This document shows positions 1-29,842 of a DNA stretch of 30,645 nt, piece by piece. A program made the position numbers and the translations under genes. The notes below the pieces were generated by a model. It searched no databases. It saw only the letters and a program-made list of their open reading frames with translations, and was not told the DNA's origin. Origin of the DNA: a virus (taxonomy: Duplodnaviria; Caudoviricetes); the IMG/VR virus record IMGVR_UViG_3300033487_000032, positions 1 to 30,645 of that record. The stretch is one strand, 5' to 3'. Each line of letters begins with the position of its first letter. Position 1 is the first letter of the stretch.

Positions 1-1410
1 CATCACAGCCGGACGGTTCGCCGCAACTACTTCTGTTGCTACATGAGCAACATGAATCCGTTCAAGATTCTGAAGAATAACCTCTGTTGCGAGGTGAGAC
101 AGAAGCGAACGTGGCTGATTTTGTGCAATAACTTCAGTTGTGATCTGTGCTACTTCTGCGTTTGTCGGTCCCCAAAAAGCCTCTATGACTACTTCTGTTG
201 CTACCTGTGCGACTTGTCCAGAAGTTGTAACCTCAACTAAAACTTCAAATGCTGACTGTGCAACCCATATATCTGGTTCGCCAGCTACTAAAACCTCAAA
301 AGCAGACTGTGCTACCCACTCATCTGGTTCACCTGCCACCAACACTTCAAACGCAGATTGAGCCACCGACTGTGCGGGAACGTCGGTGATCATTACTTCA
401 TAGGCAATCTGTGCAACCTGAGCTACCTGTGAAGTTGGCTGCAACATTACTTCATGTGCAACCTGTGCGACCTGTGCCTTCTGATCGGTCGGCTGGATCA
501 TGGCCTCAGTTGCTACCTGAGCAACTTGAGCCTGAATGTAATCTGCGAGAACAATCTCCTGTCCTACTTGGGCAACTTGAACAGGTGCGGAGTCCGTCGT
601 GTAAACAATTTCTTCAGCAACCTGTGCAACCTTGACAGTATCAGTTACAACAGCATATACATTCGCTTTCGCAACCGAAACGCCGTCAGGTGGTCTAAAA
701 ACAGCATAGGCATTTGCCTTACCTACACTTACCCCATCTGGTGGACGAAGAACAGCATAAGCATTCGCCTTCGCTACATCTATACCTTGCGTGATTTCGT
801 TGAATGCTGCAACGCACACTCCCCAGTCATCTGAAGCTACTGTCCATGACGATGCTCTCGCACCTGCCGCTGTCTGGATGTAATATTGATGAGCACTGTT
901 CCATGTTGTGTAGGCATTTTCGTAAAGTGCTGTACCATTTCTTGATGTGACGGCGGTGTTGTATCCATCCGCGAGCACACCCACAACAAGGGAAATCGCA
1001 GTTGTTGTTACGCTAATAGACGGATTGGAGCTGGAGGCACTCCCGCCAGACGCAATGTGAAGTGCTGCACAATATCCAGAAGCAGTATTGTAGCTTGAAA
1101 CAACCACTTCCAAAGACAGCGCATTCGGATTAGGCACACTGACGGTGTAGGAAGATCCTGTGGGCGGGGCCAGCATGTACCATATTTCGGCACATGCTTC
1201 TGGACTGGAGGAGTAATTGCGAACCTGGTCTGCCTGAGTCAGCGCAACACTGTTGTAAGTCGGAGCACCGCCGCCGCGTCCGCTGGAGTTGTAAGCATAG
1301 GCAAGAGTAACAACAAGGAGCTTGGCACTCGCGCCACAAGTATAACTTGTGGTGACAGGGTTGCTTGTACTAGGTGCAACCCGTGCACTGGTGTCGAGTG
1401 TGAATGCCAT
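1..1410 (-). CDS. Virion fibre/scaffold protein (3' end outside window): N-terminal beta-sandwich-like domain of ~205 aa followed by >=15 short beta-strand repeats
   Basis: Translated by hand; absent from the ORF track because no stop falls inside the window. ATG at 1410 lies 4 nt after the stop of 1415..2389. The frame is open for 470 codons: MAFTLDTSARVAPSTSNPVTTSYTCGASAKLLVVTL...VAKANAYAVLRPPDG...VAQSAFEVLVAGEPD...VAHVATEVVAANRPAVM. Confidence 0.9.
   Translation of the reverse strand, partial: MAFTLDTSARVAPSTSNPVTTSYTCGASAKLLVVTLAYAYNSSGRGGGAPTYNSVALTQADQVRNYSSSPEACAEIWYMLAPPTGSSYTVSVPNPNALSLEVVVSSYNTASGYCAALHIASGGSASSSNPSISVTTTAISLVVGVLADGYNTAVTSRNGTALYENAYTTWNSAHQYYIQTAAGARASSWTVASDDWGVCVAAFNEITQGIDVAKANAYAVLRPPDGVSVGKANAYAVFRPPDGVSVAKANVYAVVTDTVKVAQVAEEIVYTTDSAPVQVAQVGQEIVLADYIQAQVAQVATEAMIQPTDQKAQVAQVAHEVMLQPTSQVAQVAQIAYEVMITDVPAQSVAQSAFEVLVAGEPDEWVAQSAFEVLVAGEPDIWVAQSAFEVLVEVTTSGQVAQVATEVVIEAFWGPTNAEVAQITTEVIAQNQPRSLLSHLATEVILQNLERIHVAHVATEVVAANRPAVM
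25..780 (-). repeat. Protein-level tandem repeats of ~15-20 aa: 3x V(A/G)KAN(A/V)YAV, then 12x VAQxxxE(V/I/A)-like
   Basis: Read directly from the translation, e.g. VAQVAEEIV, VAQVGQEIV, VAQVATEAM, VAQVAHEVM, VAQIAYEVM, VAQSAFEVL x3, VAQVATEVV, VAQITTEVI, LSHLATEVI, VAHVATEVV. Confidence 0.92.
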
Positions 1411-1414
1411 CTAA

Positions 1415-2389
1415 TTAAGTCTTGGCTCTCATGTTTAACTGTAGCGCATCCAGCTCTGCTGGAGTCCAGGGACTGGATGTGAGAGGATTTACTGTCATAA
1501 GGCGAAGATATGAATCCCAAGCAACCGACAAATTCTGTTTTGAGCCATAATCGTAGCTGCTATTGCTTTTGATCCCCAAAGCAAGCCCATTCGTTGTTCC
1601 GTCCGCTGTCTTTACTGCTCTGGCAGACAACTGAACTGCTTTGACGGTGTAACTACCAGATGGGGTCGGGTACAGGTTGATCTGCGCGTCCGCATCGCTA
1701 GTGTTAGATGCCATCACAGTGTTTTCACTCAGTGTGTTTTCAGCAATATCTGCGTAACCACCACTCCAGTTTGTTTTCGAATCACCATCTGCATTCGGGT
1801 ACAGCGTCACAAGACCGAAGGATCGTGTGTCTTCATCAGCAACGATCAGTTCTGATATATAGCAGTTTGAATTTGGCGTCTGTCCAAGTATGATGCAGTC
1901 AAGATGTGTGACGCCAGAGGAGGATATGTCTCCGTCATACGACAGAATCAATGATCCGTCTATGTATAAGTAAAGATGACCTGTCGCGCCATAGTCCACA
2001 ACATTCAGATCCATTTTGCGCTGATCAGTCAGCCGTATCACATTATCTTTGACCAGTTCTGTCCAAGTCGTGCCGTCATATTTCCAGAGGGAAGGCATGG
2101 CACCCGTTCCGCTTGAAGCACTTCTAAGCCATATTCCCCTGCCGTTGTTGTCGGAATCACCAAGACCTAGCATGCTAGTTGATGTACCTTGACAGCCACC
2201 CTGCTGTCGCCACGAAAACCAGCATGACGTGACGCCACCACCAGGGAACAAAGTTGATCTGCCATAGCCAGGACCACTGTATAAGTTGATGGCTAGTCTG
2301 GAAAATCCTGTGCGAATTCCACCAGTAGTCATTACTGGCCGGCCAATAGGAAAATCCAAATCTTCCCCACCACACCACAGAATGCTCAC
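1415..2389 (-). CDS. Putative tail receptor-binding/lectin-like protein, most divergent array member (paralog 7)
   Basis: 324 aa with a GTG start and GGAGGTG SD inside the end of the upstream gene. Same two-domain layout as its neighbours (LYIDG...YISELIVADED; C-terminal NP..PWTPAELDALQ) but a different N-terminus, MSILWCGGED. Confidence 0.65.
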   Translation of the reverse strand: MSILWCGGEDLDFPIGRPVMTTGGIRTGFSRLAINLYSGPGYGRSTLFPGGGVTSCWFSWRQQGGCQGTSTSMLGLGDSDNNGRGIWLRSASSGTGAMPSLWKYDGTTWTELVKDNVIRLTDQRKMDLNVVDYGATGHLYLYIDGSLILSYDGDISSSGVTHLDCIILGQTPNSNCYISELIVADEDTRSFGLVTLYPNADGDSKTNWSGGYADIAENTLSENTVMASNTSDADAQINLYPTPSGSYTVKAVQLSARAVKTADGTTNGLALGIKSNSSYDYGSKQNLSVAWDSYLRLMTVNPLTSSPWTPAELDALQLNMRAKT

Positions 2390-2390
2390 A

Positions 2391-3836
2391 TTACACCTCC
2401 AACTTCATGCCCATCTCGGCATCCTTCGTGTCTTGAACAGACCACGCACCGCCTCCTGGTTTTGTCTCTTGGATGAATTGCAGAAATCCCCATGAAGATG
2501 GGATGCTCTTTTCGCTAGATTCAAGGTCCGTACTGGACAGGCGCGTGACCATCTTCAACGTACGGGAGCCTGCATCAGCTTTCTGGACATAGTAATTTCC
2601 AACAACCGCCTTCACAGTTCCAGATGACTGTGAAATGTCCTGCATTGCATAGGAATCGATCTTGTCAGTCCCGATCGCTTGAACATAGTCAGTTGTCACT
2701 GGCGGGCTCTCATCCACAGTTGTGTAGTTATTGATTGGTCCATATAGACGAATTTCATCCAACTGCCACCCATTCGCCCCACCTTCTTTTGTGGTGAGAT
2801 TCAACTTGTAATACCTGTAAGCTGTCTCGTTGTTGAATGTGAAATTTCGTGTTTCGCTGTTCCCCCACGCTGATGCGCCGGATCGCGAGTCTAATGTATC
2901 CCAATCAGCATCATTGTTAGAGCCTTGCAAGTTCCATGCTGTCGGCATCCCTGGGTACGACGCATTGTTCGTGTTTGATTTCAAATCATAGTTCGTAATT
3001 ATTCGCGCATTCCCATTACCAAAATCATACTTGAGCCATTGAGGAGCTGAAGTAGAGTTGTAGTACCACGGATTTCCCTGATCTTCATCCCAGGCTCTCC
3101 AAGCATCATAGGGAGACGTAAAATTAGAGCAAGACACGACATTTGGCGAAGGTGTCGAATTGTCTTGCATGTCCGCATTTTTCTTTTCCGTCGTAGAGGA
3201 AATCCACTGTGTGTAGTACCCCGCACCCTCCGGTGCACGGTAAATAATCCGCACGTCACCGTGAAATTGCGCGGTGTCCACATACAGATCATCATAATAT
3301 GTAGTCTGCGTCCCGCTCCCTACTGTGTCAGGAAGGTGCAAGGAATCCATCGACAAAAGTGCGCCATTACGCGTGTCTCCACTCGCGTTGATCCAGCCAG
3401 AATTTGTCCCATCAACGCGAACCTCAAACACCCCTGACGAATCGTCGATCGTGACTTTGATTTCTATGTAATGCCATTCGTTCGCAGGATACAAATTGGT
3501 TGATGACCCAAGGACAGTTCCTCCTCCGTGAATTGCCTGTAATTGACCGGAGGCAAGCAAACTCAAATAGCAGTGTCGTGTGCCGCCGCTGAAAAAGCCA
3601 ATAACTGTTCGCGGATTTGATCCCGCACCACTTTGTTTATACGCAAACCCAACATAGTATGTCACAGCTGCAGGCATGGGCCAAATCGTATAGTATGTAC
3701 CAGCAGTCCCAGCCACAAGACAGCCGCCACCAAATCTTCCTGCGCTTGCATCTATCCAACATGCATTGTTGGCAGATATGTTCTTGTTTGGAAGTGCGGT
3801 GTAATGGTCAAAGCTATCAACAAATAGAAAAGCCAT
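2391..3836 (-). CDS. Putative tail receptor-binding protein (paralog 6): LamG/ConA-like domain with an inserted discoidin (F5/8 type C)-like domain
   Basis: 481 aa. MAFLFVDSFDHY start, WHYIEIKV...VRVDG...YYDDLYVD, insert PQWLKYDFG...PTAWNLQGSN...YRYYKL...DEIRLY, and the conserved TKPGGGAW...AEMG C-terminus. Confidence 0.75.
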   Translation of the reverse strand: MAFLFVDSFDHYTALPNKNISANNACWIDASAGRFGGGCLVAGTAGTYYTIWPMPAAVTYYVGFAYKQSGAGSNPRTVIGFFSGGTRHCYLSLLASGQLQAIHGGGTVLGSSTNLYPANEWHYIEIKVTIDDSSGVFEVRVDGTNSGWINASGDTRNGALLSMDSLHLPDTVGSGTQTTYYDDLYVDTAQFHGDVRIIYRAPEGAGYYTQWISSTTEKKNADMQDNSTPSPNVVSCSNFTSPYDAWRAWDEDQGNPWYYNSTSAPQWLKYDFGNGNARIITNYDLKSNTNNASYPGMPTAWNLQGSNNDADWDTLDSRSGASAWGNSETRNFTFNNETAYRYYKLNLTTKEGGANGWQLDEIRLYGPINNYTTVDESPPVTTDYVQAIGTDKIDSYAMQDISQSSGTVKAVVGNYYVQKADAGSRTLKMVTRLSSTDLESSEKSIPSSWGFLQFIQETKPGGGAWSVQDTKDAEMGMKLEV

Positions 3837-3844
3837 CTATCACC

Positions 3845-4828
3845 TCATGCAACCATTTTCACACCAAACTCGGCGCTGTTCACGTCTGAGATAGTCCACG
3901 CACCGCCGCCAGGTTTTGTTGTTTTGATGTCACACATATATCCCCAACTGGATGGTAACACAAGAGTGCTGCCGACATCGTCCGTGCTCGAAAGTCTTGT
4001 AGCCAGAGCTATTGACCTGTTACCTGCATCTGACTTTTGACAGTAGAAATTCCCCTGCACAGCCACAACAGTGCCTGCAGTCGGAGTCACGTCTCCTGTG
4101 GCATACGTGTCGATCTGTCCAACTGTTCCAGAGCTAATATACTCAGATGTACTTGGTGGTTTTTCCTCTACACAATCCCAGTTGCTTCCTGCTGACGGTG
4201 TCCACTGCGCATAGTTGCCTGCACCTGTTGGCGAGATGGCTTGGATGCGACAGTCGCCATAGAACTGATCGTCGGCAATCCAGAAGTCATCATAATAGCG
4301 ATTGTTCCACCAATCACAAAGACCATATCCAATCCAGTAGTTGTTTGCGTATGCGTTGCCGCTCGCGCTCGTGTTCAGGTTGGCTGAAGTGTTGATATAC
4401 TCCACACCATCGACCTTCACGATGATCTGTCCTACGCTCGTGCTGAAAACAACCTTCACTTCATAGTAATGATAAACATCAAGGTTTTGAACTGGATTAT
4501 CCGAGGTGACCAACACATTGTAGATGTTTTGGCGATATGCCCTGATCTTGTTGCCAGGCTCTATTTCGATGTGTACTTGATTTGTTCCAGCATCACCAAA
4601 GCCACAGATGCTTACCGGACCCGCCTGTCCCGCCGCGAATATTGCTGCAACGCCCAAGTACAGCGTGCCTTTATTGCTGCACGTTCGCGCGATGTTAGTG
4701 GATGAGTGCTGTATCCTAATGCCGTTTGTCCCATTTCTGCCATAAGCACCAATATCTCCACCACTAGCAACCCACTTATGCCCAGGTGTCGTATAATGAT
4801 CAAATGAATCCATGAACAAAACGCCCAT
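3845..4828 (-). CDS. Putative tail receptor-binding/lectin-like protein (paralog 5)
   Basis: 327 aa. MGVLFMDSFDHY, YHYYEVKV...VKVDG...YYDDFW, and a C-domain GDCR...WTPSAGSNW..VEEKPP...TKPGGGAWT...AEFG. Confidence 0.72.
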   Translation of the reverse strand: MGVLFMDSFDHYTTPGHKWVASGGDIGAYGRNGTNGIRIQHSSTNIARTCSNKGTLYLGVAAIFAAGQAGPVSICGFGDAGTNQVHIEIEPGNKIRAYRQNIYNVLVTSDNPVQNLDVYHYYEVKVVFSTSVGQIIVKVDGVEYINTSANLNTSASGNAYANNYWIGYGLCDWWNNRYYDDFWIADDQFYGDCRIQAISPTGAGNYAQWTPSAGSNWDCVEEKPPSTSEYISSGTVGQIDTYATGDVTPTAGTVVAVQGNFYCQKSDAGNRSIALATRLSSTDDVGSTLVLPSSWGYMCDIKTTKPGGGAWTISDVNSAEFGVKMVA

Positions 4829-4836
4829 CTCTCACC

Positions 4837-5814
4837 TCACGCAATCATCTTCTGGCCCATCTCAGCGTCATTAACGTCTGCGACTGCCCACGCACCACCA
4901 CCTGGTTTTGTCTCTTTGATGTCCTGAATGAATGCCCAGTCACTTGGAAGAGCGATGCCAGAACCTGCGTCATCTGTACTAGACAAACGTGTGGCAAGCG
5001 CGATCGTGCGAGAGCCACCATCCAGTTTTTTGCAATAGAAATTTCCTGCTACTGCGTACACTGTACCAGCACCCACACTCAAATTCTCCACGACATATGT
5101 GTCGATCTTCCCTGCTGTTCCTGCGCTAACATAATCGGCTGTGTCGGGTGGTTTTTCATCTACACAGGCGTAATTGCTTCCTGCGCTTGGAGTCCACTGA
5201 GAATAATTACCGACGCCAGTTGGGACGAGGCAATGCACGCGACAATCACCATGCTGTGTCGCATCATCCACATACAAATCTGTCAGATACACTACGGCAC
5301 TTTGTGCCCACTGAAGTGGATAGAGCGTAGCTGCGTATGCGTTCGCAGTTTGGTTGGTGTCTTGGCTTGTCAGGTTCAAGAACTCAACACCGTCCACTTT
5401 CACTATGACCACACCAGCCGAGTTGTCGATAACGTACTTCACGTCGAAGTAATGCCAAGCATTCGGTGTTGCTGTCAGAGTAGATGTACCGAGAGATGTT
5501 CCACTGTAACCTCCACGTTTTGCGGTTACAGTACCATCAGCATTCCACAGAATAGACATCTGGATCGTCGAGCCGTCTTCTACACAGAAGAAGTGCGCGT
5601 ACCCACTGCCAGTGTTCTTGATTGCAGCTCCGATGCACCACGTCTGCATCTGCTTTATTGGACGGTAACAGTAGTTGTTGTCAGAATTGAGCCGTAACGC
5701 ACCCGTGTTTGACCACCTACCATCTGTTGAACCGATAGTACACCCGTAAGTGTAGTACCCTTTCTTCGTCAGGTCTGTGTAGTGGCTGAACGAGTCTATA
5801 AAACAGACTGCCAT
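4837..5814 (-). CDS. Putative tail receptor-binding/lectin-like protein (paralog 4)
   Basis: 325 aa. MAVCFIDSFSHY, WHYFDVKY...VKVDG; the C-domain is very similar to that of 3845..4828. Confidence 0.72.
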   Translation of the reverse strand: MAVCFIDSFSHYTDLTKKGYYTYGCTIGSTDGRWSNTGALRLNSDNNYCYRPIKQMQTWCIGAAIKNTGSGYAHFFCVEDGSTIQMSILWNADGTVTAKRGGYSGTSLGTSTLTATPNAWHYFDVKYVIDNSAGVVIVKVDGVEFLNLTSQDTNQTANAYAATLYPLQWAQSAVVYLTDLYVDDATQHGDCRVHCLVPTGVGNYSQWTPSAGSNYACVDEKPPDTADYVSAGTAGKIDTYVVENLSVGAGTVYAVAGNFYCKKLDGGSRTIALATRLSSTDDAGSGIALPSDWAFIQDIKETKPGGGAWAVADVNDAEMGQKMIA

Positions 5815-5822
5815 CTCTCCTC

Positions 5823-6827
5823 CTACGTGGTCAGCTTCACGCCAAACTGTGCGTTGTTAATGTCGTCGATGGTGAACGCAGCAGACGTCCGCTCATTTTC
5901 ATACATCATGCTCTGACGCATCTTATACGCCGCATCCAGAGTAATCTCGTTTCCGAGAGTTGTCGTGCCTGTTTCAAGACACGCGCCACTTATTCCTCTT
6001 GCAGCCGTCCCCACTTTCTGCGCAAACATATTGACGACCACAGCAAACACGCTACCAGTTAGCGGAGATACGTTCTCCGTAACGTATGTATCAACATCAT
6101 TAAGGGTAGCACTCTCAATGTAATCACCTGTGTTTGGTGGTTTCTCATTCACACATTCAAAGTTCGAGCCAGAAGAAGGCGTCCAGTCTGTGTTAGACCC
6201 CACACCAGTAGGTGATATGCACTGAATAATTACATCACCCAAAAAATTATTGCAATAACTGTCGGCCGTGTCCATAACGACCACATCATCGCGATAGGTA
6301 TAACTGCTTGCGCCTGTACCCATCCCGCCAAGAACAACATCGGTGCAATAATCGTTTGAGGTGTTTTGTGTATCCTTGCCTGTATCTGCTATCTTCGATA
6401 CAGTATCCACCTTCACGTCCACCGTACCAGTGCCACTGGCGATGAGAATTTTTATCTCAACGTAGTACCAAATGGAGGCAGACATTCCATGTGCGGCAGA
6501 CGAAATCTCTGTGGCACCACAATACACCTTGATGTTCGCGCCCTCTTGCTTTACAACAACCTGAACGTCATCATCGTCATCATCATAAAGCGTAAGCAGG
6601 ATGTGCGTGTCGGTCACGTTTTCAAAATAAACTGCCTGACCAACAATAACTGTGGATTTGCCGGCAGGTGGCTTGAAACCAACACCGGCATCACCAGTGT
6701 TGATCTTCAGGCCATTTGTTCCCAGCCGGCCATAACTACCACCAATGGAACAACTTCCATAAGTGGTTAGCCACTTTTGGCTGATCGTGGTGTAGTGGTC
6801 GAATGAATCACTAAGCAATAGAGCCAT
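5823..6827 (-). CDS. Putative tail receptor-binding/lectin-like protein (paralog 3)
   Basis: 334 aa. MALLLSDSFDHY, WYYVEIKI...VKVD...YRDDVVVMD, C-domain WTPSSGSNFECVNEKPP...AQFGVKL. Confidence 0.72.
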   Translation of the reverse strand: MALLLSDSFDHYTTISQKWLTTYGSCSIGGSYGRLGTNGLKINTGDAGVGFKPPAGKSTVIVGQAVYFENVTDTHILLTLYDDDDDDVQVVVKQEGANIKVYCGATEISSAAHGMSASIWYYVEIKILIASGTGTVDVKVDTVSKIADTGKDTQNTSNDYCTDVVLGGMGTGASSYTYRDDVVVMDTADSYCNNFLGDVIIQCISPTGVGSNTDWTPSSGSNFECVNEKPPNTGDYIESATLNDVDTYVTENVSPLTGSVFAVVVNMFAQKVGTAARGISGACLETGTTTLGNEITLDAAYKMRQSMMYENERTSAAFTIDDINNAQFGVKLTT

Positions 6828-6835
6828 AACTCACC

Positions 6836-7903
6836 TCAAGAGTAAATCTCTTGGCCGAACTCACAAGCTGCAATGTTTTCCCACGTCCATTCATTTCCAT
6901 CTGGATCGAGGTCAACTCTGAACCACTCCATACCACGTGGATATGTGTAGTAATCTGTCAACGGCCACCAGCCATACACATGGAAAGGATCGGTGTAAAC
7001 TTCTGTTGTCCCTAACTTCATGATCCCACGCATTTCGCGTGGTCCAATGTTTGTTTTCCGTGCCTCCCATGTAAACATGATGCTGATGGGTGTGCCGGAA
7101 TGTTCAGTGACGTCAAAGGTATATGTATCTTGATTTCCTACGTCGTCAGCTTCAGGCGAGAAGATGTAGGTTGTGTCACTGTCGTGTGGTTCTTCATCTA
7201 TAAGTGCGTAATTGTCTGAACCGGCGGAACGATCCCAATCTTTATGAGAGCCATCAGCACCTGGCATGTATGTGTTTACTGCGCAATCTCCAGTGGACAC
7301 GTCTGGTGTTTGTAAATCACAAACGTAAAAATCATCGAAATAAATCCTAGAAATATCGGTGCGTATCCACTCTGTTCTTCCGCCAATCGCTATATTGCTG
7401 AGCGTTCGTTCTTCATGCATCGCCTCCGAACCCATCACGTCCACAGCTCTCGGAGGAAGATAATACCCATCTACCCATACTGTTATGTAGTCACCAAATA
7501 CATGAAGTTCAATATGGTTATACCCACTAGCTCTAACCGTAGCTCCGAGGTATGTGCGAGGGATAAGGTAGTGATCTTGACAACCAGTAGACCACACCAA
7601 CTGTCCGTTCCGCACACATAAGCCACTCGTAAACTCTACTTGCCCCCATTCATTGGTTGTGTAAAAACCAAATATACAGAAATGACTTATCACTCCTGTA
7701 GGTTTAACCGCGACACCTAAACCAAACCCGCTACTGCTTGGTGGCACATAGGCCACAAGAATCATCGCTCCCCAAGTATCCGCGTAAGAACACGAACCTC
7801 CATCCCTTCCATTATCTGTATGAAACTGAGGTGCGTACCAACCCCAGGGAGACCAGTTCGGATTAGGTTGCTGTTCAAACCCATCCCAGAACAACATCGT
7901 CAT
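6836..7903 (-). CDS. Putative tail receptor-binding/lectin-like protein (paralog 2)
   Basis: 355 aa with an ATGA overlap with the upstream gene. MTMLFWDGFE, YNHIEL...VWVDG...YFDDFYVCD, GSDNYALIDE...WTW...CEFG. Confidence 0.7.
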   Translation of the reverse strand: MTMLFWDGFEQQPNPNWSPWGWYAPQFHTDNGRDGGSCSYADTWGAMILVAYVPPSSSGFGLGVAVKPTGVISHFCIFGFYTTNEWGQVEFTSGLCVRNGQLVWSTGCQDHYLIPRTYLGATVRASGYNHIELHVFGDYITVWVDGYYLPPRAVDVMGSEAMHEERTLSNIAIGGRTEWIRTDISRIYFDDFYVCDLQTPDVSTGDCAVNTYMPGADGSHKDWDRSAGSDNYALIDEEPHDSDTTYIFSPEADDVGNQDTYTFDVTEHSGTPISIMFTWEARKTNIGPREMRGIMKLGTTEVYTDPFHVYGWWPLTDYYTYPRGMEWFRVDLDPDGNEWTWENIAACEFGQEIYS

Positions 7904-8955
7904 GTGGTTAGTTTTGGCCCGAAGTTGGTGCTGTTCACACTAGAAATGGTCCACAGTGTATCTGTGGGATCCCGTTCCATTATCGACTGGTAGAAGATAT
8001 AATCTCCACCAACTCTTCTCTCTGTTCCATCCCCATACGTCCCACCACTTAACTTAGCTGTCATCGAAACTCCACGCGAACCTGAATCTATCTTCTTCGC
8101 GTAGAAGTTCATCATTACTCCCTTTACCTCTCCTGTCGTAGTAGGAAGATCGGGGAAGGTGTAAGTGTCTTTGGCATCTTCAGTTTGGGTGGTAATGTAA
8201 GTGGTGTCATCGTCTATACTGTCGTAAGGATCATCCACCAGCGCGTAGTTATCAGAACCTGTATTGCGGGTCCACTCCTTATCTACGTCTGCTGTGGGAA
8301 GTTGCTCCACCACACGAACATCACCAAGTTGATCCTTGTTATCATCTCCAGTATTGTCTGTAAGATAAAAATCGTCATACAGAATTATGCCAGGATAATC
8401 TGTTCGCTGCCAGCTCGCTGGTCCACCCAACGCAACTGCCTCAGCCACCGAATACGAGGATCCACTATTACTATTTATGTCAGATAGATTGAGCACCAGC
8501 ACTTCTTGCAACCACACTTTCGCTATGCCAGCGGACCCATGAAAACTCTGGATTTGAATTTCGACGTAATTATAGGCTTTGTTGCGAATGGGTGTGTTAG
8601 CGTACCATCTTACTTCACCTGACCAAAAATACAGGTTGAATGTCTCCGTTACACCCACACCACAAAGCCACGTCCCGCCCGATACGAATGAGATAATCAT
8701 ACCGGGGGCTGACACTAAACCATCCGTCGGTTTGTACGCAACCCCTGCCGTCACGTATCCAAGAGGTCCATTCGGCATGGCCTTGATGACTCTGCCCCAA
8801 GAATCACCATGCCCCATTGCATTTGTCTCAAACCTACCCTGGCCTTCGTAGATAGCTGGAGGTGAAACCCACGGAGTACCACCCGAAAAGTCCCACTTCT
8901 TATTTAACTGCGCGCTGTCGTAATGGTCAAAACCATCACTAAATATCAGAGCCAT
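7900..8955 (-). CDS. Putative tail receptor-binding/lectin-like protein (paralog 1)
   Basis: 351 aa. MALIFSDGFDHY, YNYVEIQI...YDDFYLTD, GDVRV...GSDNYALVDD...WTISSVNSTNFG. Confidence 0.72.
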   Translation of the reverse strand: MALIFSDGFDHYDSAQLNKKWDFSGGTPWVSPPAIYEGQGRFETNAMGHGDSWGRVIKAMPNGPLGYVTAGVAYKPTDGLVSAPGMIISFVSGGTWLCGVGVTETFNLYFWSGEVRWYANTPIRNKAYNYVEIQIQSFHGSAGIAKVWLQEVLVLNLSDINSNSGSSYSVAEAVALGGPASWQRTDYPGIILYDDFYLTDNTGDDNKDQLGDVRVVEQLPTADVDKEWTRNTGSDNYALVDDPYDSIDDDTTYITTQTEDAKDTYTFPDLPTTTGEVKGVMMNFYAKKIDSGSRGVSMTAKLSGGTYGDGTERRVGGDYIFYQSIMERDPTDTLWTISSVNSTNFGPKLTT

Positions 8956-8968
8956 ACTTTACCATCTA

Positions 8969-8993
8969 TCTTTGGAAATACGCTTATCGTACT
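8969..8993 (-). promoter_or_regulatory. 25-bp intergenic element, copy 1 (AGTACGATAAGCGTATTTCCAAAGA); candidate late promoter/operator
   Basis: Exact match to 21315..21339. It lies between the tip gene stop and the first paralog start. The repeat is observed; its function is inferred. Confidence 0.6.
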
Positions 8994-11900
8994 CAAACGG
9001 GTCTGTAGTCCCTGACAAACGCAACCACGTCCAACACATCTAACGGAGAGTAATACAGTGTGCCTAACCAATGACGTGTGTTGTTTTGTGGCACCAGCAT
9101 TACAGGATTTACGTCCTGATTAGAACTTTCGATGAAAGCGATGTCTAGTGTGATAGCCTTATCACCAGTATCCGCCTGTTCAATGATCCACGCAACTGGC
9201 TGTCCGCAATACGTTAAACCTGTAGGTTTGTCAAGGATGAAGTTTTCAGTCGCCTTGATATAAAAGACCGTGCCCAAACTTGCATCCGTAGAAACATGAC
9301 CGGCCACGATGGGTAAAGTGGTGCAGCCGCTCTGTGTGGGGAAGCCTTCTTTGATATCCCCCATTATAGAACATTTGTTATCGTCTGCTCTAGACCACAG
9401 ATTGTCGAACCACACTCTACCTATGAGAATGGAGGGGTCTGTTGCTGGTGGTACTTTAATTGGAGGGCTGGTAAATACTTGCTGGGTCTTGTCTCCACCC
9501 ACCTTCCAATAACTTAACTCAGACATCCCTCCACCGAGTTCATCACCGAAGAAGCCGTCGCCAACCCACGTGTTTGGCATCTTGACGACTTTAATACGAA
9601 TATCGGTGGTGTCGCCGGTCAGGGGAACAAATGCCCCATCCACCTCTATCCATGTAGCAGTGGTAGGATCTCCACCCTCAATCGCACTTACTGTGCCCCA
9701 TTCGCAATAGTGGACACTGAAATCTCCAGCTGTTACATCACATATTATGAGATCACCAATATGCGTGGTACCAAAACCACTACCACTGTCCCTCGTTATT
9801 CTCTTACCACCAAGCGAGAGCGTGTGACTAATTGCGCTGCCATCGTAATAGGTTGGTGCGGTTGATGTACCAGCATCAACATCGTATGCACCACCAACAG
9901 AGCCATCCTTAATCTGTGCGGCCATCCACCATATTCTACTGCCATTTATTTTGGGGCGTGTGGCACATACGCAGTAGGTATCAGGTTGCGGCCCATATAT
10001 TAACCACACACTCCAATTAGATGGAGGACCGTCATCCGCGCTATCTGCTTTCTCAGTGTCGACAAAATCAACAACAGCACTGGGTGTTTCATTCCCATCC
10101 GTCCACAACGACCACCCAATGTTATTCTTCAACCTACCTACGCAGTACCATCTACCATGGTCTGTGCTCGTCCAGAACCAATTAGCTCCTTTATAAGTTC
10201 CAGGGATACTTTGGATGTGGAGCTTGGTGGTTCCATTAGGTGTCCATGAGCCACCTTCAGACGCCAGCCTCATATCTACAGGACTGACATCTGAGCCAAT
10301 AGGAAAGTACTGCGCACGGAACTCACCTTCAAACACTGATGCAGTGTAGGCGTCAGAATACCATCCGGCGCGTATCGCCAACCCAGTGGCGTTAAGCACC
10401 ATGTGGACACCGGATGTAACTTGGTCTTTCCCCTCTCCTATTGTTTTGGGGCCTGCAGTTAACCGTGTGCCCACGCCAAAAGTATTGCGCGCATACACTG
10501 TGCCATAAAACGTGCCGTTCGGGGCGGGAATTGGTGGTGTGCGCCAAATCTCCGCTTCCTTGACAAACGTATCAACAGGGAACTGTGCGTAGACACTATT
10601 AGTAGTATCTCCACCTGTCCCCGTATGCCAGAATCTCTTTATGACAGCGTAACTGAAATCTCCACTCTTACTAAACGCTTTAGAGATAACAAAGTTATCC
10701 GCACCATGTCCTGTAATGATGTCTGCGTCAAGGTCAGAGTCAGGATCGCCATCAGGCGTATATATGCACAAGACTCGAGCTTGAACGTCTGGATCATCTC
10801 CACCAGGCCTTGTTGCCTGAACGGTGGTTTCACCCGCTGTAACGTGACACGTTCCTACCTCTATAACTTCGTCAGAGTGGGCGGTGCGTTCCGCAGAATA
10901 CGGACCTTCACCTGGCATATCTACTGAAAGGATACAAGCTACCGCGTATATAGAAGAGTAGTTTGCGGTGTCACGGTGGAACTGAAATACTACATGACCT
11001 GTAGGGATGGTTGCGTCATCCGTCGTGGTCAACATCTGAAGGTCATGAGCACCAGAAGGATTAGCACCATCTGTAGAACCATCAACCAGAACACACTGAC
11101 GAGGATACTTAAAATTATCCGCAGAATCCTTTGTCTGCGGGTCAGGGACACCTCCCGCCAAATTTTGACTAAGGGCGGCAAAGCACTCCAGCTTATTGGT
11201 GATCTCATAATAGATTGTACCTGGAGCCCTAATAATTTCAGTAACAAATCTCCAGTCATTTACTGGTTGACCCAGACTGTCTGTGGTCGACCGCTCAATA
11301 ACAACATCCTTAAACCCATTCCTCTCCTCCATCCTTATAACACTGAGCAGAGCATTATCAGCAACATCAAACTCCAGCCCAATATCTAATGGAAGAGTAC
11401 CAGCCCCACCAGATAACGTAACGTCGCTGGTGAGATGATAATGGCGGATGTGGCCTTCTATTCTGAGGGTGTCTCCGAGCTTGAGAGCGAGATCAGTTGG
11501 CGTGATACCATCAACATCAATCGTCTCGTCGTTTTGAGAAGCACTACCAGCAGCCGCTCCCCTATACTCCCCAGGCTCATCGTATGTGAAGGTAATTTTG
11601 GCGTGCGGGATTCCGTGTCTGTCATAAACACCCTGCTCCAAAACTTGAAAATTTGTTACCGCCGGGGCTTCTTGGTTAAATCCTCCGGGAATACCATGAC
11701 GAGTAAGATCAGTACAAGTAAAAGCAGTATCATCATATATGGCATTATCGTGTAGTGTACAGGCAATCTTCCGCTTGAACAGGAACCCGCCACCCTCGAC
11801 ATCTACCGATTCATCTTCCATATTAACGATGCGGAAAAATGCCTCGTTAACAGGATCTAATAGTGCGTCCTCAACCTGTATAAGGTCACCGAGTTCTAAG

Positions 11901-14074
11901 TCAGAGGTATCTTTATAAAAAGCATCAAAGATGATCGTAAGATTATTGGCGGTGCCACCCTTGGCAAAGTCTCCAGCCCTCAGCACCAATGTGCCGATTC
12001 GTGCTGCTTCATCTATTGTTGTGACCCCAGGAAGGTCCAACGTCCTGGTGATAGCTTTAAGAGAGTTATCACCAAGCACTGCACCGACGTGCGTCTGCGC
12101 TTCTCTATCAGCAAGAACTAACTGTGTTTTGATCCACTGGCCATTCTCATACGCAACAAAATTAACCTTAACTTCATTAGGAACTTCAAGCATCGACTTT
12201 CTGTTTTTTGTAAGTGTCGATGCCCCATCACGATCAATAAGAATGTTTCGAGATGTGCCAGAAGTAGAAGAAAAGATTGGAAGATCATCTATGGACTCCT
12301 GCTTCAGCATCTTGATTTTGTACTTACCATCTTTGTCTAAGAAAGGTGGTAGACAATACATGCCGGTACAGATAATCCGTTCGTGTTCTTGGAAGCTTTT
12401 CTTTCCATCAATGGCACCATTAAAGGTCCATCGAGGAACACTACTACCGTCAACAACGCTTGTCACCGTTTCAGCGCAGTAAGTGCGGGCGTCTATAAAA
12501 GACTGGATATTTACACGAGAGTAAGCTAACCCGCCGCCGGCACGCTTGCTTGTCTCATAATCAAACAAAACGTCTGCGGGGCTTGTAGTGGGTTTGAATG
12601 TGTAAGCAGAAGGTGTGGTATAAACCCTCACACATCTTCCATAACGAATCTCGAAGTCACCATCTACTTGTCCCGTTGCACAATCTACTGCACCAGATCC
12701 AGATGAATTATTGTCCTCCTTTATTCTAACCATGACCATCGCTGTACCAGCGAATTGGTTCATGTAGTTAGTAAACTCAGGCACCCCCGAAAAAGGTGGT
12801 GGGGGCTGATCCATGTATCCACCACTTATCCATATCCCCCAACCCGCCCTTGGATCATGCCTTCTCTTGCCATTTACATATATGGCCTCCATACCGTCGG
12901 CTGCGACGGCATAGGCGTTCATCGGATTATCTTGGTTGCCGTTACTTGCGTTGCAAGCTAACGTACCTTCGCACACCGCAAACAACGCACAAACGAAAAC
13001 CTGATCTTCTCCTGCTTTCCCCTCATTCCTTGCAACCAACAGAGGAGGATCGAGAAGTCTGCAACGACCATAAATGAGAGGAATGGTCTTTCCGTAAGCA
13101 CTCTCATTTCCTGCAAACGAAATAGAGGTCTTAGCCCAAATGCTAAGATCCCTCATCTTATATCTACCAGTTACCTGGCCTGTTATGAGGGGAAATCCCC
13201 CGAAGTAGTTGCGTCTGTAGGTAGAACCACCTGAGGAATATGTATCACTGGTATTGTTACCATACATCCCGCGTCGTTTACAAGCGGCCACGGTATAATG
13301 ACAATTTGAGAAAAGAACTGTGGTACCTGAAATGTGGGAGGTAATAGTTGTTCCACGTTGTCCTCTTATAGCAGTAACATTGCCGCTCCCGACGGCCGTG
13401 ATCCGCATAATCTCATTGTCGAGCTTTATTTCATCATCTAGTCTGTAAAGCTGACTGTCGGGAAGAGCGGTGTGGGTAAAGGTAACTGGATCGTCACTGT
13501 CGTTAATTCCTTCTGATGTTGTGGTGACGAATCCCACAGTGGATACATTTCTATAAGGACATTCACTCCCATCGAAGTCTGTACTATCGTGGCTGGCGTC
13601 ATGCGCAGCGAACACCCACGGACAACTTGCCTGAATAGTTCGCTTGGGTATTTCTGTGCGGATGGTTGGGTTGCCTGAATAGGCGACCAACGTAGCGTCT
13701 TTGACCGAAAGTTCGCGGAGATCATCGGCCCATCCTATCCATTTTACATGAGCCAGAGGTGTGACAGGATCATCCAGATATTCAATGAGTTCAACCTTCG
13801 CACCTAAGAAAGAGATAGTTCTTTCTAGTGTGGTGAACTCACCATCAACATTCGCTAATACAATGCTGATTTCGCCTGAATCTGCGATTGTCTGGGGGAT
13901 GCGAGATATGTCTAAGACTTTCGGGAGGTAAGCATGCCCACCATAGGTGATGGCGCGCTCTGCGTAATACTTTACGAGCGTAGAAGATAGAGTAATGCGG
14001 ACGAGATAAAAAATCCCTGCGACAAGAGTTGCATCAAGTTTGGCCTTGATGCCAGCGTCAATTCCACGAGGCAT
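8993..14074 (-). CDS. Tail tip/hub protein: lambda gpL-like N-terminal part fused to a gpJ-like tip attachment/central fibre region
   Basis: 1693 aa, located after the tape measure and distal tail genes. Cys cluster SCPW..ECPY..CHYTVAAC ends in YFGGFP. It is followed by IPLIYGR, SPADVLFDY...GGL...SF..A..YC and PNEVKVNF hub motifs, then a beta-rich C-terminal region. Confidence 0.8.
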   Translation of the reverse strand: MPRGIDAGIKAKLDATLVAGIFYLVRITLSSTLVKYYAERAITYGGHAYLPKVLDISRIPQTIADSGEISIVLANVDGEFTTLERTISFLGAKVELIEYLDDPVTPLAHVKWIGWADDLRELSVKDATLVAYSGNPTIRTEIPKRTIQASCPWVFAAHDASHDSTDFDGSECPYRNVSTVGFVTTTSEGINDSDDPVTFTHTALPDSQLYRLDDEIKLDNEIMRITAVGSGNVTAIRGQRGTTITSHISGTTVLFSNCHYTVAACKRRGMYGNNTSDTYSSGGSTYRRNYFGGFPLITGQVTGRYKMRDLSIWAKTSISFAGNESAYGKTIPLIYGRCRLLDPPLLVARNEGKAGEDQVFVCALFAVCEGTLACNASNGNQDNPMNAYAVAADGMEAIYVNGKRRHDPRAGWGIWISGGYMDQPPPPFSGVPEFTNYMNQFAGTAMVMVRIKEDNNSSGSGAVDCATGQVDGDFEIRYGRCVRVYTTPSAYTFKPTTSPADVLFDYETSKRAGGGLAYSRVNIQSFIDARTYCAETVTSVVDGSSVPRWTFNGAIDGKKSFQEHERIICTGMYCLPPFLDKDGKYKIKMLKQESIDDLPIFSSTSGTSRNILIDRDGASTLTKNRKSMLEVPNEVKVNFVAYENGQWIKTQLVLADREAQTHVGAVLGDNSLKAITRTLDLPGVTTIDEAARIGTLVLRAGDFAKGGTANNLTIIFDAFYKDTSDLELGDLIQVEDALLDPVNEAFFRIVNMEDESVDVEGGGFLFKRKIACTLHDNAIYDDTAFTCTDLTRHGIPGGFNQEAPAVTNFQVLEQGVYDRHGIPHAKITFTYDEPGEYRGAAAGSASQNDETIDVDGITPTDLALKLGDTLRIEGHIRHYHLTSDVTLSGGAGTLPLDIGLEFDVADNALLSVIRMEERNGFKDVVIERSTTDSLGQPVNDWRFVTEIIRAPGTIYYEITNKLECFAALSQNLAGGVPDPQTKDSADNFKYPRQCVLVDGSTDGANPSGAHDLQMLTTTDDATIPTGHVVFQFHRDTANYSSIYAVACILSVDMPGEGPYSAERTAHSDEVIEVGTCHVTAGETTVQATRPGGDDPDVQARVLCIYTPDGDPDSDLDADIITGHGADNFVISKAFSKSGDFSYAVIKRFWHTGTGGDTTNSVYAQFPVDTFVKEAEIWRTPPIPAPNGTFYGTVYARNTFGVGTRLTAGPKTIGEGKDQVTSGVHMVLNATGLAIRAGWYSDAYTASVFEGEFRAQYFPIGSDVSPVDMRLASEGGSWTPNGTTKLHIQSIPGTYKGANWFWTSTDHGRWYCVGRLKNNIGWSLWTDGNETPSAVVDFVDTEKADSADDGPPSNWSVWLIYGPQPDTYCVCATRPKINGSRIWWMAAQIKDGSVGGAYDVDAGTSTAPTYYDGSAISHTLSLGGKRITRDSGSGFGTTHIGDLIICDVTAGDFSVHYCEWGTVSAIEGGDPTTATWIEVDGAFVPLTGDTTDIRIKVVKMPNTWVGDGFFGDELGGGMSELSYWKVGGDKTQQVFTSPPIKVPPATDPSILIGRVWFDNLWSRADDNKCSIMGDIKEGFPTQSGCTTLPIVAGHVSTDASLGTVFYIKATENFILDKPTGLTYCGQPVAWIIEQADTGDKAITLDIAFIESSNQDVNPVMLVPQNNTRHWLGTLYYSPLDVLDVVAFVRDYRPV

Positions 14075-21343: not shown

Positions 21344-22345
21344 TTAGAGTAGGTACGCAGCGGTGTGATTGTAAACCACAACCGTCACCGGCGTGGCGTC
21401 TGTGGTGTCGTAAAAGACCTTGTAGGTGATTTCGAGAAGATCTCGAATACCGTCGAAGGACTGCTTCGCGGATGCGACCTTCACAACCGGGAAGTTGTAA
21501 GTGATCTTGCTGTTCGTGTCGATCGTCAGCTCAAGATCAACTTCCTGGACGGTCTCACCAAGCATCGCGTTCCAGAACTCATCTCCCTGATGGCCTTCGA
21601 CCCTCACCACCAAGTTGTATGCGCGAGAGCCAAACCTCAGCGAGGACAAATACCTCCCCGAGTTTACCACGTCGGCGCGGCCGTCCGCGACATCCAAATT
21701 GTTGTTGATGGTGAAATCCAGGCCTCTCAGTTTCGCCTTCTTCGACACGCCGCCGATCTTGAAATCACCCATGCCACCAGTGACCCACTCTGCGTGAGCG
21801 GACGATGTGGGGAAGGAGAAAGAAGGCTTGGCGGTGAGCGTGCCGTCTGAAAGCGCAGTACCTGTGAGGTTGAGCCTCCCGGCGGAATCAAGCGTGATCT
21901 TCAATTCATTGATGACCACGCCCTTGACCAGCATGTACGATGCTGTGTCACCAGTCAACCCCAACACCCACGATGTTGACGGAAGGGTGTCAGTGGTGCA
22001 GGCCTGAAGAGCCTTACAGGTGTGCGTGTAGTTCGATGGCGCACCGCCGGCTGTGTATCCGCCCATTGAGAGCGCATACATCAATCCTGCAAGCGTCAAA
22101 GAGCAGGGGAAAGAAAAGGGGATCGAGATGTCTTGAGCTGTGACAATGTCCAGCGACGTGTCCTGAGGCCACTCATGCCCCTTAATCACAGCAGAATCGT
22201 CGATCCGCGTTTGTGTCAGATCAAGGATCACGGGTTCGTTTGGCTCAAACAGCTTGTTGATGTTGGCATCAAGAACCTGCGTACCAAACGCGGTCTCCTT
22301 GTAATAACTCAGCGCGAGTTTCGCGCATTGTGGTCTAATAGGCAT
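21344..22345 (-). CDS. Major tail (tube) protein, paralog B
   Basis: 333 aa just before the chaperones, with tube-like motifs KETAFG, GVVINELKITL, FTINNNL and PVTVVVYN. Confidence 0.82.
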   Translation of the reverse strand: MPIRPQCAKLALSYYKETAFGTQVLDANINKLFEPNEPVILDLTQTRIDDSAVIKGHEWPQDTSLDIVTAQDISIPFSFPCSLTLAGLMYALSMGGYTAGGAPSNYTHTCKALQACTTDTLPSTSWVLGLTGDTASYMLVKGVVINELKITLDSAGRLNLTGTALSDGTLTAKPSFSFPTSSAHAEWVTGGMGDFKIGGVSKKAKLRGLDFTINNNLDVADGRADVVNSGRYLSSLRFGSRAYNLVVRVEGHQGDEFWNAMLGETVQEVDLELTIDTNSKITYNFPVVKVASAKQSFDGIRDLLEITYKVFYDTTDATPVTVVVYNHTAAYLL

Positions 22346-22382: not shown

Positions 22383-23429
22383 TTACACCTCGTCCAACAA
22401 GTACTCCGCCACGTCATTCGTCACAACGATTGTGACCGGCGTGGATGTTTCGGTATCGTAAAAGGGCTTGAAGGTGACTTCTAGCACGTCACGAATCCCG
22501 TCGAAACTCTGCTTTGCAGACGCGACCTTCATGTGAGGGAAGGTCATGACGATTCCACAGCCCATATTTGTGCCGGATGGAACCACAACCGAAACCACGA
22601 CTGCCAGAACTGTTTCATTCATCATGTAGTTCCAGCGAGCGTCACCCTGGTGGCCCTCAAACCTTACCACCAAGTTGTAGGCACGATTCCCAAACCTCAG
22701 TGAATCGAGAAACACACCTGCATTGACCACATTCGAGCGACCATCTGCCACGTCGAGGTTGTTGTTGATGGTGAAATCGAATCCCCTCAACACAGTCTTG
22801 ACTGAATTAGGACCGCCACCTGAGTCGATGGTCATGTCGCCCATCGCGCCTGTCACCCAGATTGAATGTGCGGAGGGTCCGGCTGGCCACACATATGTGT
22901 CTGGGTCTGCGACAGGAAGCACTTCACCGTCAGAAAAAGCTGTTCCTGTGAGATTGAGGCGGCTGGCGGTGTCGAGCGTGAGTTTAAGCTCATTGATCAT
23001 CACGCCCTTCGCCACCATCACCGAATCATGATCGCTCAACAGCCCCATGATCCAAGTTGTTGATGGAAGGAGGTCGTTGGTGCAGACGACCTGCGCCTTA
23101 CAGGTGTGATCGTAGAAGCTTCCATTTACAGCATGGGCATAATCGCCCATCGCGAGAGCGTAAAGCAGACCTGCGAGAGAAAGAGAGCAGGGGAAAGAAA
23201 AAGGCATGGAAACGTCTTGTGCCGAGACGATATCTAAGCCTGTGTCCTGCGCCCACTCATGCCCTTTGATTCCGGCGGCGTCATCTACCCGCGTCTGAGC
23301 AAGGTCGATGATCACTGGCTCGTTCGGCTCAAACAACTTGTCGATGTTTTCTTCCTCAAGGGCTACACCATAGGTGCCCTCTTTGTAGTAAGACATCGCA
23401 AGTTTGGTACATTGCGGTCTAGTTGCCAT
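22383..23429 (-). CDS. Major tail (tube) protein, paralog A
   Basis: 348 aa, colinear with paralog B over its full length (KLFEPNEPVI, IKGHEW, FTINNNLDVADGR, KVASAKQSFDGIRD). Confidence 0.82.
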   Translation of the reverse strand: MATRPQCTKLAMSYYKEGTYGVALEEENIDKLFEPNEPVIIDLAQTRVDDAAGIKGHEWAQDTGLDIVSAQDVSMPFSFPCSLSLAGLLYALAMGDYAHAVNGSFYDHTCKAQVVCTNDLLPSTTWIMGLLSDHDSVMVAKGVMINELKLTLDTASRLNLTGTAFSDGEVLPVADPDTYVWPAGPSAHSIWVTGAMGDMTIDSGGGPNSVKTVLRGFDFTINNNLDVADGRSNVVNAGVFLDSLRFGNRAYNLVVRFEGHQGDARWNYMMNETVLAVVVSVVVPSGTNMGCGIVMTFPHMKVASAKQSFDGIRDVLEVTFKPFYDTETSTPVTIVVTNDVAEYLLDEV

Positions 23430-26875: not shown

Positions 26876-27280
26876 TTAAGCTGTTACTTGAACGAAGCAT
26901 GGGAAGATGTAGGCGCGAAAAACATCATTCTCGTCTGCGGCTTCCAATGCTCGTCCGACTGCGACGTTTGTCGTGTCTCCAGGCGCGCCGAGTGTGATAC
27001 CGACGGCATGACCGCTTGCGTCAGCAACAATATACTGACCAGCAGCAATGCCACCAGCACCTGCCACCAACTTCGACTCGCCTAGCACCACAACTTCTGC
27101 GGGCCATCCCTCTGCTTCAGGCTTGTTTTGCAGCGCACCAATGACCAGATCAGTAGCGGCGGATGCAAGAGCGACCGTGCCGGTTGCACTCAGTAGCACA
27201 ATGTGATACTGATTCAGATGCAAATCGGCCGCGGCCTTAAACGAGCCTTTGAAGAATGGGATTCCATACCCCTTACCCAT
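26876..27280 (-). CDS. Capsid cement/decoration protein, paralog B (DUF2190-like)
   Basis: 134 aa, Ala/Gly-rich, with IGALQNKP...AGAGGIAAGQYIVADASGHAV...VGRALEAA. Confidence 0.82.
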   Translation of the reverse strand: MGKGYGIPFFKGSFKAAADLHLNQYHIVLLSATGTVALASAATDLVIGALQNKPEAEGWPAEVVVLGESKLVAGAGGIAAGQYIVADASGHAVGITLGAPGDTTNVAVGRALEAADENDVFRAYIFPCFVQVTA

Positions 27281-27326: not shown

Positions 27327-27719
27327 TTACACCTGAACGAACTGCGGAAGAACGTACGCACGGAAGATGTCATGATCATCGGCATCCTCCAGCGCACGAG
27401 CAACCGCAACTCTGGTGTTGGTTACGCCAAGGGTAACTGCGACAGCTTCCCCATCACTGTTCGGGACGAGGAACTGTCCTGCAGTAATGCTGCCCCCAGC
27501 TTTAAGCTTCGTTTCGCCGGCAACGACGACCTCTACAGGCCAACCCGCTGCTTCCGGCTTATTCTGCTGAACGCCGATCGAGAGATCAGTCGCCGCAGTC
27601 GCAAAGTCCACGATGCCCGTAGACGTAATCTTGACGATGTGAAACTGCTTCGTGGCAAGATCGGCATCAATGGCTTTGAACGTGCCCTTAAAAGTGGGAA
27701 TGCCATACCCCTTACCCAT
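27327..27719 (-). CDS. Capsid cement/decoration protein, paralog A (DUF2190-like)
   Basis: 130 aa; shares MGKGYGIP.FKG.FKA, AATDL.IG..QNKPEA.GWP.EVVV and RALE.AD..D.FRAY with paralog B. Confidence 0.82.
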   Translation of the reverse strand: MGKGYGIPTFKGTFKAIDADLATKQFHIVKITSTGIVDFATAATDLSIGVQQNKPEAAGWPVEVVVAGETKLKAGGSITAGQFLVPNSDGEAVAVTLGVTNTRVAVARALEDADDHDIFRAYVLPQFVQV

Positions 27720-29493: not shown

Positions 29494-29494
29494 C

Positions 29495-29842
29495 TTATAC
29501 CCATGTGCCGAAGTATTTGGTGGCGAGTGTGCCCTGACTGCCACCAACGGCCGCTTTCACCTGCACCTTTAGGTGCGTGTACATATCTGTGTAGACTTTT
29601 TCGACCGCCGCACCTGTAGTAACACTGATCGCGGACTCGACGGCTGCAAATGTTGTCCCACCATCCTTCGATCCCAGCACATTTACTAAAAGGTTGTTGG
29701 TGGTAGCGGAGAAGGTGAAGGTTTTGGTCTTGTAATAGGCAACAGACCAGACTCCCACGTCCACATAAACGTCTGTGGAGAGCTTATTTGCAAAAGCATC
29801 CCATTCACACACCGCACCGCTGGACCTAAATCTCATTGGCAT
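29495..29842 (-). CDS. Small beta-sandwich protein, probably virion-associated
   Basis: 115 aa, Thr/Val-rich, with VLGSKDGGTTF and YTHLKVQV; GAGGAG RBS at the end of the portal gene. Confidence 0.6.
   Translation of the reverse strand: MPMRFRSSGAVCEWDAFANKLSTDVYVDVGVWSVAYYKTKTFTFSATTNNLLVNVLGSKDGGTTFAAVESAISVTTGAAVEKVYTDMYTHLKVQVKAAVGGSQGTLATKYFGTWV

Follow-up and report, generated by a model that had tools for sequence, protein, structure and literature searches.

What do seven tandem paralogous genes and the repeat-protein gene that follows them build for the virus that carries them? They occupy one end of a 30,645-nucleotide stretch of viral DNA (Duplodnaviria, Caudoviricetes; IMG/VR record IMGVR_UViG_3300033487_000032, positions 1 to 30,645), a single partial contig of 30.6 kb that we call the window and whose 27 proteins were scanned against Pfam and PHROG. 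We consider it probable that the seven paralogs (heads P1 to P7) dock on the repeats of the adjoining protein (the rope), which would supply in trans the last strand that each head lacks and so yield a multi-receptor virion fibre. This reading builds on the truncation, the intact relatives, the strand match and the gene linkage as seen in sequence, on a predicted fold and slot, and on inferred binding. In the proposed assembly, each head would place a lectin-fold domain on a dock domain, a jelly roll cut short of its final beta-strand, and the rope would offer that strand many times over. A single extended rope protein would take up many heads, probably several copies of each type, and the product would be a multi-receptor fibre, itself presumably attached to the tail.

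The heads are encoded by seven minus-strand open reading frames (ORFs) of 324–481 amino acids (aa), spaced by 1–8 nt or overlapping by 4 nt:

7900..8955, minus strand: head P1, 351 aa, putative lectin-fold N-domain and truncated jelly-roll dock domain (phrog_2448, E 4.8e-37)
6836..7903, minus strand: head P2, 355 aa, divergent (phrog_2448, E 1.1e-12)
5823..6827, minus strand: head P3, 334 aa (phrog_2448, E 8.5e-38)
4837..5814, minus strand: head P4, 325 aa (phrog_2448, E 2e-34)
3845..4828, minus strand: head P5, 327 aa, predicted ConA-like N-domain at ~4265-4828 and dock domain at ~3848-4261 (AlphaFold2, fold search)
2391..3836, minus strand: head P6, 481 aa, with an F5/8 type C (discoidin) insert in the dock domain at ~2763-3131
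1415..2389, minus strand: head P7, 324 aa, the most divergent type, with distinct groove strands (phrog_6368, E 1e-27)

The PHROG match is phrog_2448 for six of the seven heads (E 1e-12 to 9e-38) and phrog_6368 for the last, both families of unknown function. Aligned end to end, all seven stop at a common W..(A/T/L)(E/Q/N)(F/M/L)(G/N)x(K/E/R)xxx, so that ORFs, PHROG matches and alignment together bear out an earlier note on this DNA, which had described seven tandem paralogs with a shared abrupt C-terminal end. The C-terminal domain that the note called conserved is alignable and ends alike in all, but its conservation is only moderate (roughly 12–63% identity, with a few pairs failing to align), and in P6 it carries the F5/8 insert (PF00754, E 4e-07, above the cut-off), the phrog_2448 match being split into two stretches.

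The N-terminal domains vary far more. P4 and P5 share 63% identity in the C-domain and 28% in the N-domain; orthologous heads of the window and locus L050 have C-domains 59–77% identical and exchanged N-domains (75% and 31%, respectively, for an L050 head compared with P5); and the P2 C-domain is 62–63% identical to heads in L050 and L051. By these alignments, N-domains shuffle on conserved docks. P3 found tblastn matches in Chi-like, Brevundimonas and Mesorhizobium phages; a locus search with P7 returned no viral contig. In the close relative L051 the head array is interrupted by a 147-aa gene (9548-9991), sigma-factor/HTH-like by eye, and in L057 the head genes are fragmented into many short pieces, probably through sequencing frameshifts.

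P5, the one head of the seven for which a structure was modelled, gave a confident AlphaFold2 model from 117 sequences (mean pLDDT 95.9, pTM 0.92). Its residues 1–195 are predicted to be ConA-like (Z 19.1 to 8q28, rmsd 2.7, 187 aligned), with further matches to the PL20 lyase 2zzj (Z 18.5) and a mycobacteriophage Douge baseplate chain (Z 15.0); the LamG/ConA-like N-domains previously proposed thus have their counterpart in the ConA-like fold of this head. From the predicted fold we infer that head N-domains may bind host-surface glycans. PDB sequence searches with three alignments returned nothing relevant, one of them giving two weak N-domain matches (E 0.013 and 0.04). The model begins with a paired lectin-domain strand (E3-7), and heads built in this way would therefore have no free tail to donate. 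A chain of heads in the manner of a pilus, considered as a separate candidate, was ruled out because the heads lack a free terminal strand.

The rope ORF (1-1410, minus strand, 470 aa) is open at the contig end and is laid out as follows:

796..1410, minus strand: rope N-terminal domain, aa 1-205, of no named family (look-alike unnamed viral clusters, score 0.96)
649..777, minus strand: strand block 1, three KAN(A/V)YAV repeats
550..630, minus strand: strand block 2, two VAQVxxEIV repeats
391..525, minus strand: strand block 3, three VAQxAxE(A/V)M repeats
238..366, minus strand: strand block 4, three VAQSAFEVL repeats
1..213, minus strand: the last four visible strands, (Q/H)xxTEV, where the gene leaves the contig

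The N-terminal domain, which has no Pfam or PHROG match, is missing from the rope of locus L053. After it, 15 visible strand-like repeats with a period of about 15–20 aa run to the contig end (3 KANAYAV-type and 12 VAQxxxEV/HxxxEV-type), in agreement with the at least 15 strand peptides counted before. The Pro/Gly/Asp linkers once assigned to them did not hold: the actual linkers are rich in Gln, Pro, Val, Thr, Ala and Asp, with only 5% Gly. The longest repeat run was 10, against at most 2 in 1000 shuffles, a comparison that is not independent because the profile was trained partly on close relatives. Complete rope genes in the relatives L050 (604 aa) and L069 (599 aa) carry ~22 strands by eye, about 6 beyond those in the window. 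A period of ~17 residues leaves ~five linker residues per strand, so the heads would sit closely packed along a semi-flexible fibre. Searching cultured phages with the rope by tblastn gave no match, the repeats being too divergent or filtered as low complexity, and a locus search with the L031 repeat protein matched only itself.

Where, then, does the strand come from that the heads lack? Among 156 full-length C-domain matches in the fetched loci, 146 stop within ~2 residues of the profile end. The other ten include three that gain another strand (L092, the near-identical pair L093/L095, and L097), five heads of Vibrio jumbo phages that carry an additional domain, and one with an 11-residue tail. 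A profile that includes the extra strand found 24,537 representatives at E up to 0.001. In the top 150 of these the strand is present in 233 of 309 domains, 20 end abruptly at the protein C-terminus and 56 are partial or otherwise, counts that are not family-wide proportions because the extra-strand profile favours intact forms. Relatives with C-domain and strand fused in cis, which the earlier note took to continue into a V(T/S)QxxVEV strand and suggested searching for, therefore do exist.

The intact last strand has the consensus [CV]TQ[VLI][YW][VA][EV]VxY (T 87%, Q 90%, V 86%) and the repeats RV[ST]Qx[AV]VEVL, giving a core of VTQxxVEV in the repeats against [CV]TQxxVEV in the intact strand. 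A profile of the intact strand alone recovers 10 of the 12 Q/H-type repeats of the window in register. Its 12 sites in total lie barely above the maximum of 500 shuffles (mean 4.3, maximum 11); the margin is clearer in L031 (10 sites) and L005 (9 sites), both against a shuffle maximum of 5, and there is none in L008 (5 sites, maximum 5).

The models point the same way. In an intact relative, residues 2–6, 63–75 and the last strand, 143–155, are beta; the P5 equivalents of the first two, 194–198 and 253–256, have no strand assignment, and the stretch 186–199 is unassigned in a model of mean pLDDT 95.9. We infer that the dock domain has an empty slot between its first and fourth strands. Foldseek matched the intact dock model to carbohydrate-binding-module (CBM)-like jelly rolls at a modest TM of 0.42–0.56, and a separate C-domain fold search found a cleaved-adhesin look-alike (TM 0.59). 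Proteins P0155, P0171, P0177, P0179 and similar ones of ~460 aa have tandem dock domains, the first lacking its last strand and joining the next domain directly; there are therefore other ways of completing a dock.

If rope and heads work together, their genes should travel together. The forward set comprised 75 loci of viral or metagenome origin (83 before 8 duplicates were removed), 67 of them with a truncated head, and an array of two or more strands lies within 3 kb of the head in 38 of these 67, against 1 of 5473 background ORFs far from heads. Eighteen of the other 29 loci have under 2 kb of flank, and six of the remaining 11 show repeats by eye. The reverse test took 140 loci picked by repeat DNA pattern alone (a partial scan), a pattern that is mostly noise (127 loci without an array). 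Thirteen loci scored as arrays and 10 were kept as true; L158, L159 and L161 were dropped as low-complexity shadow frames, judged by eye. A head gene lies 2–127 nt away on the same strand in 7 of the 10 true-array loci and in none of the 127 array-free loci; among the three true-array loci outside those 7, L206 is the L005 protein again. The co-occurrence anticipated in the earlier note was thus found in both search directions.

A third set was drawn from cellular genomes, where ~58 of 69 loci look like one prophage family. Of 14 inspected by eye, 12 have repeats: these are clear and of divergent class in seven (five Patescibacteria, a Bdellovibrio chromosome and L242) and degenerate, at the start of the next tail gene, in five prophage loci. 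L247 is ambiguous, and L243 holds the intact form with no repeat gene alongside, a 185-aa dock domain (6097-6654) among virus-like genes on a Bathyarchaeota contig.

How heads and strands are matched is a further question. The window repeats fall into blocks of alike neighbours (3, 2, 3, 3, then 4 more). A one-strand-per-paralog scheme was rejected: the window has 15 or more strands for seven genes, L031 nine scored for two and L035 four for one. Strand complementation as first proposed therefore stands in the match to the intact strand, in the unpaired partners of the model and in co-occurrence, whereas its one peptide per paralog is unsupported, since there are more strands than head genes and the strands are grouped in blocks of 2–3; across loci, repeat number and paralog number showed no one-to-one match.

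Gain and loss of strand blocks instead go along with particular head genes. The gene order in L053 runs from a P3-type head (58 residues seen) straight to a P6-type head and on to the rope, and the K, EVM and AFE blocks are missing from this rope. Of 12 loci with a P7-type head or motif, 4 have KANAYAV-type runs, as against 0 of 146 loci without one. Brevundimonas phage Polewnik has ~ten K-type strands after a P7-type head, and in Vibrio phage sm033 there are three heads, with strands of three classes. These patterns favour a block-wise preference without proving one. The preferences inferred from sequence would be KANAYAV with P7, its likely partner, EIV with P6, and EVM and AFEVL with P5/P4. 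We tentatively extend this to a plug-in code, in which each strand block would recruit one head type in roughly reverse gene order and thereby program the order and number of heads; under the same proposal, Chi-like flagellotropic phages (gp32-36), roseophages and Vibrio jumbo phages would have a hitherto unrecognised appendage made from the split jelly-roll module, and Saccharibacteria and Bdellovibrio would make surface adhesins from it.

The alternative that survives best differs from docking by strand donation on selectivity only and otherwise overlaps it: any head would fit any strand, and blocks would be recent tandem duplications. Neighbours within a block are 62–74% identical in DNA, as duplication would give, and one-head loci carry 2–8 strands. 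We nevertheless consider this somewhat unlikely, as block loss tracks head loss in L053, K-type runs are found only with P7-type heads, sm033 pairs its three heads with three strand classes, and each of the three heads of L249 has its own small neighbouring repeat gene of its own strand class.

Several observations weigh against docking by strand donation in general. The three KANAYAV repeats are left unscored by the intact-strand profile, and the KANAYAV co-occurrence test was post hoc, three of its four positives being close kin. At two positions the repeats depart from the intact strands, with a small hydrophobic residue in place of Tyr and Leu in place of Asp/Asn, differences that would also fit self-association. 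The slot was read from DSSP strings and not from coordinates. The profile behind the forward count was trained on the same loci; no repeats were found in 5 of 49 head loci with enough flank (L033, L036, L038, L062 and L089); and the head in jumbo-phage record LR756511 (L004) stands alone. In L180 and L196, loci of 717 nt, the gene upstream of the array is not a head, and profile arrays appear in only 2 of the 69 independent cellular-genome loci.

Part of this would suit a second alternative, in which rope and heads bind by edge-strand augmentation or a repeat-formed sheet, as in the fibres of A1002 and GP4, without slot filling. Sheet augmentation is described for phage fibres in PMC13730344, the repeats are hydrophobic where intact strands are polar or aromatic and often come in threes, and the truncated domain alone was modelled with high confidence. 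Augmentation leaves unexplained that the repeats copy the exact strand of intact relatives that is missing in truncated ones, and that the neighbours of this strand are unpaired in the truncated model; we judge it improbable. Least credible of all are stand-alone receptor-binding heads (trimerising or baseplate-bound) beside a separate co-travelling fibre, which some head loci without a nearby repeat gene and the general clustering of tail genes would allow, but which the two-way co-occurrence, the intact archaeal form L243 with no adjoining repeat gene and the match of repeat to missing strand make very improbable.

Docking of heads on a rope by strand donation would not be confined to the window. 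Judged by eye, cultured phages with each of the three tail types have the pairing: Chi (gp32-35 with gp36), Enc34, Brevundimonas and Mesorhizobium phages, Loktanella, Rhodobacter and Phaeobacter phages, N4-like roseo- and vibriophages, and Vibrio jumbo phages. The RD-1410W1-01 head is labelled 'virion protein' in GenBank, as deposited. Strands are located in stand-alone proteins of 75–200 aa, behind passenger domains, or N-terminally in tail proteins, where they would anchor heads directly. In Chi gp36 (L307 14142-16271) and Enc34 ORF37 (L001 12965-14971), the N-terminal strands are followed by a second repeat of ~26 aa, V.Q(V/I).(E/Q)HV...YP; fully extended, 709 residues would span over 200 nm and could be a long fibre backbone. 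Heads and repeat genes also occur on Patescibacteria/Saccharibacteria contigs (L238-L240, L246, L249), with no phage genes in the inspected flanks. On the Bdellovibrio chromosome (L245 10744-11082), two heads precede a 112-aa protein with four TQ/TR..K strands, whose twin-arginine-like leader, judged by eye, suggests an exported bacterial version.

In the window, the seven paralogs and the rope gene are packed tightly after a minus-strand virion module of portal, protease, major head protein, two tail-tube genes, a 2001-aa tape-measure-like protein and a 1693-aa tail protein:

8993..14074, minus strand: tail hub/central-fibre-like protein, 1693 aa, directly upstream of the heads (phrog_1101 tail, E 6.9e-13; weak PF13550)

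The tail is likely non-contractile, as the scan of 27 proteins detected no sheath gene. The tail-tube genes are tandem paralogs of 333 and 348 aa (21344-22345 and 22383-23429; PF18906, phrog_290), tandem paralogous cement/decoration-like genes precede the major head gene (26876-27280 and 27327-27719; phrog_673, PF09956 weak), and 28558-29547 encodes an XkdF-type head protease fused to a ChaB-like N-terminal part.

If docking by strand donation is right, it would assign a structural function to a very large domain family that has no name (the 24,537 representatives) and to five hypothetical Chi genes. It would also offer a way for a phage to carry and swap many recognition heads that do not each need their own fibre and anchor, and a natural set of possibly orthogonal peptide-tag/catcher pairs. 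The proposal is directly testable in cultured phages.

How does such a fibre compare with known systems? In chaperone-usher pili, a strand of a second chain takes the place of the missing last strand of a beta-sandwich; each pilin donates an N-terminal extension to the next, and a chaperone and usher are needed. The window dock likewise lacks its final strand, with a predicted groove left, but the heads lack a free extension, the donor strands are all on one separate protein, the dock resembles a CBM-like jelly roll, and no chaperone or usher gene was found among the scanned proteins of this partial contig. In the cellulosome, one scaffoldin recruits interchangeable heads through cohesins, folded domains that bind helical dockerins. 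A single scaffold, interchangeable functional heads and a conserved docking module are common to both, whereas the scaffold unit here is an 11–13-residue strand and there is no homology.

Closer relatives are the genes of Salmonella phage Chi (gp32-gp36) and Enc34 (ORF33-37; phrog_2448, 10924, 7226), annotated as hypothetical only, where three or four tandem homologous heads share the same end and the protein after them has N-terminal strand repeats (six in Chi gp36, by eye). PMC12264135 assigns the long Chi-like fibre to YSD1_29, a gp30-type protein, and not to gp32-36, which leaves a role for gp32-36 neither supported nor excluded. The fibre cloud of jumbo phage Goslar, described in bioRxiv 10.64898/2026.04.21.720040, is a multi-headed appendage of DUF7941 paralogs that share a docking module and differ in their host-binding domains; it is a head-to-tail self-polymer without a separate rope and belongs to another domain family.

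The nearest architecture is that of the chain-like fibres of podophages GP4 (PDB 8JOU), VP1 and A1002, for which PMC13730344 describes a rope and globular subunits joined by beta-sheet contacts; A1002 has two bead proteins in two blocks, of 7 and 4 dimers, proposed to widen receptor range. The earlier note knew of no such architecture, yet rope-and-bead fibres held by beta-sheet augmentation are published there. Our literature search, which covered few subscription papers and no supplements, found no description of this head-strand pairing. The rope of the window carries 15 strand repeats, on which the heads may dock. According to that paper, the beads are 140–171-aa single-domain homodimers on podophage tails, whereas the window heads are of 324–481 aa, two or three domains and seven types, and their phage has a tape-measure gene but no sheath gene among the proteins scanned. 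The PDB sequence searches gave no link between the heads and any solved structure of that kind, and the GP4 fibre chain 8JOU was not among the Foldseek matches listed for the intact dock model, an absence that does not argue either way. By analogy, the feature would work like a rope-and-bead fibre, without shown membership of the GP4/A1002 family; unlike in those fibres, its docking strand has an intact counterpart in relatives, which points to a split domain.

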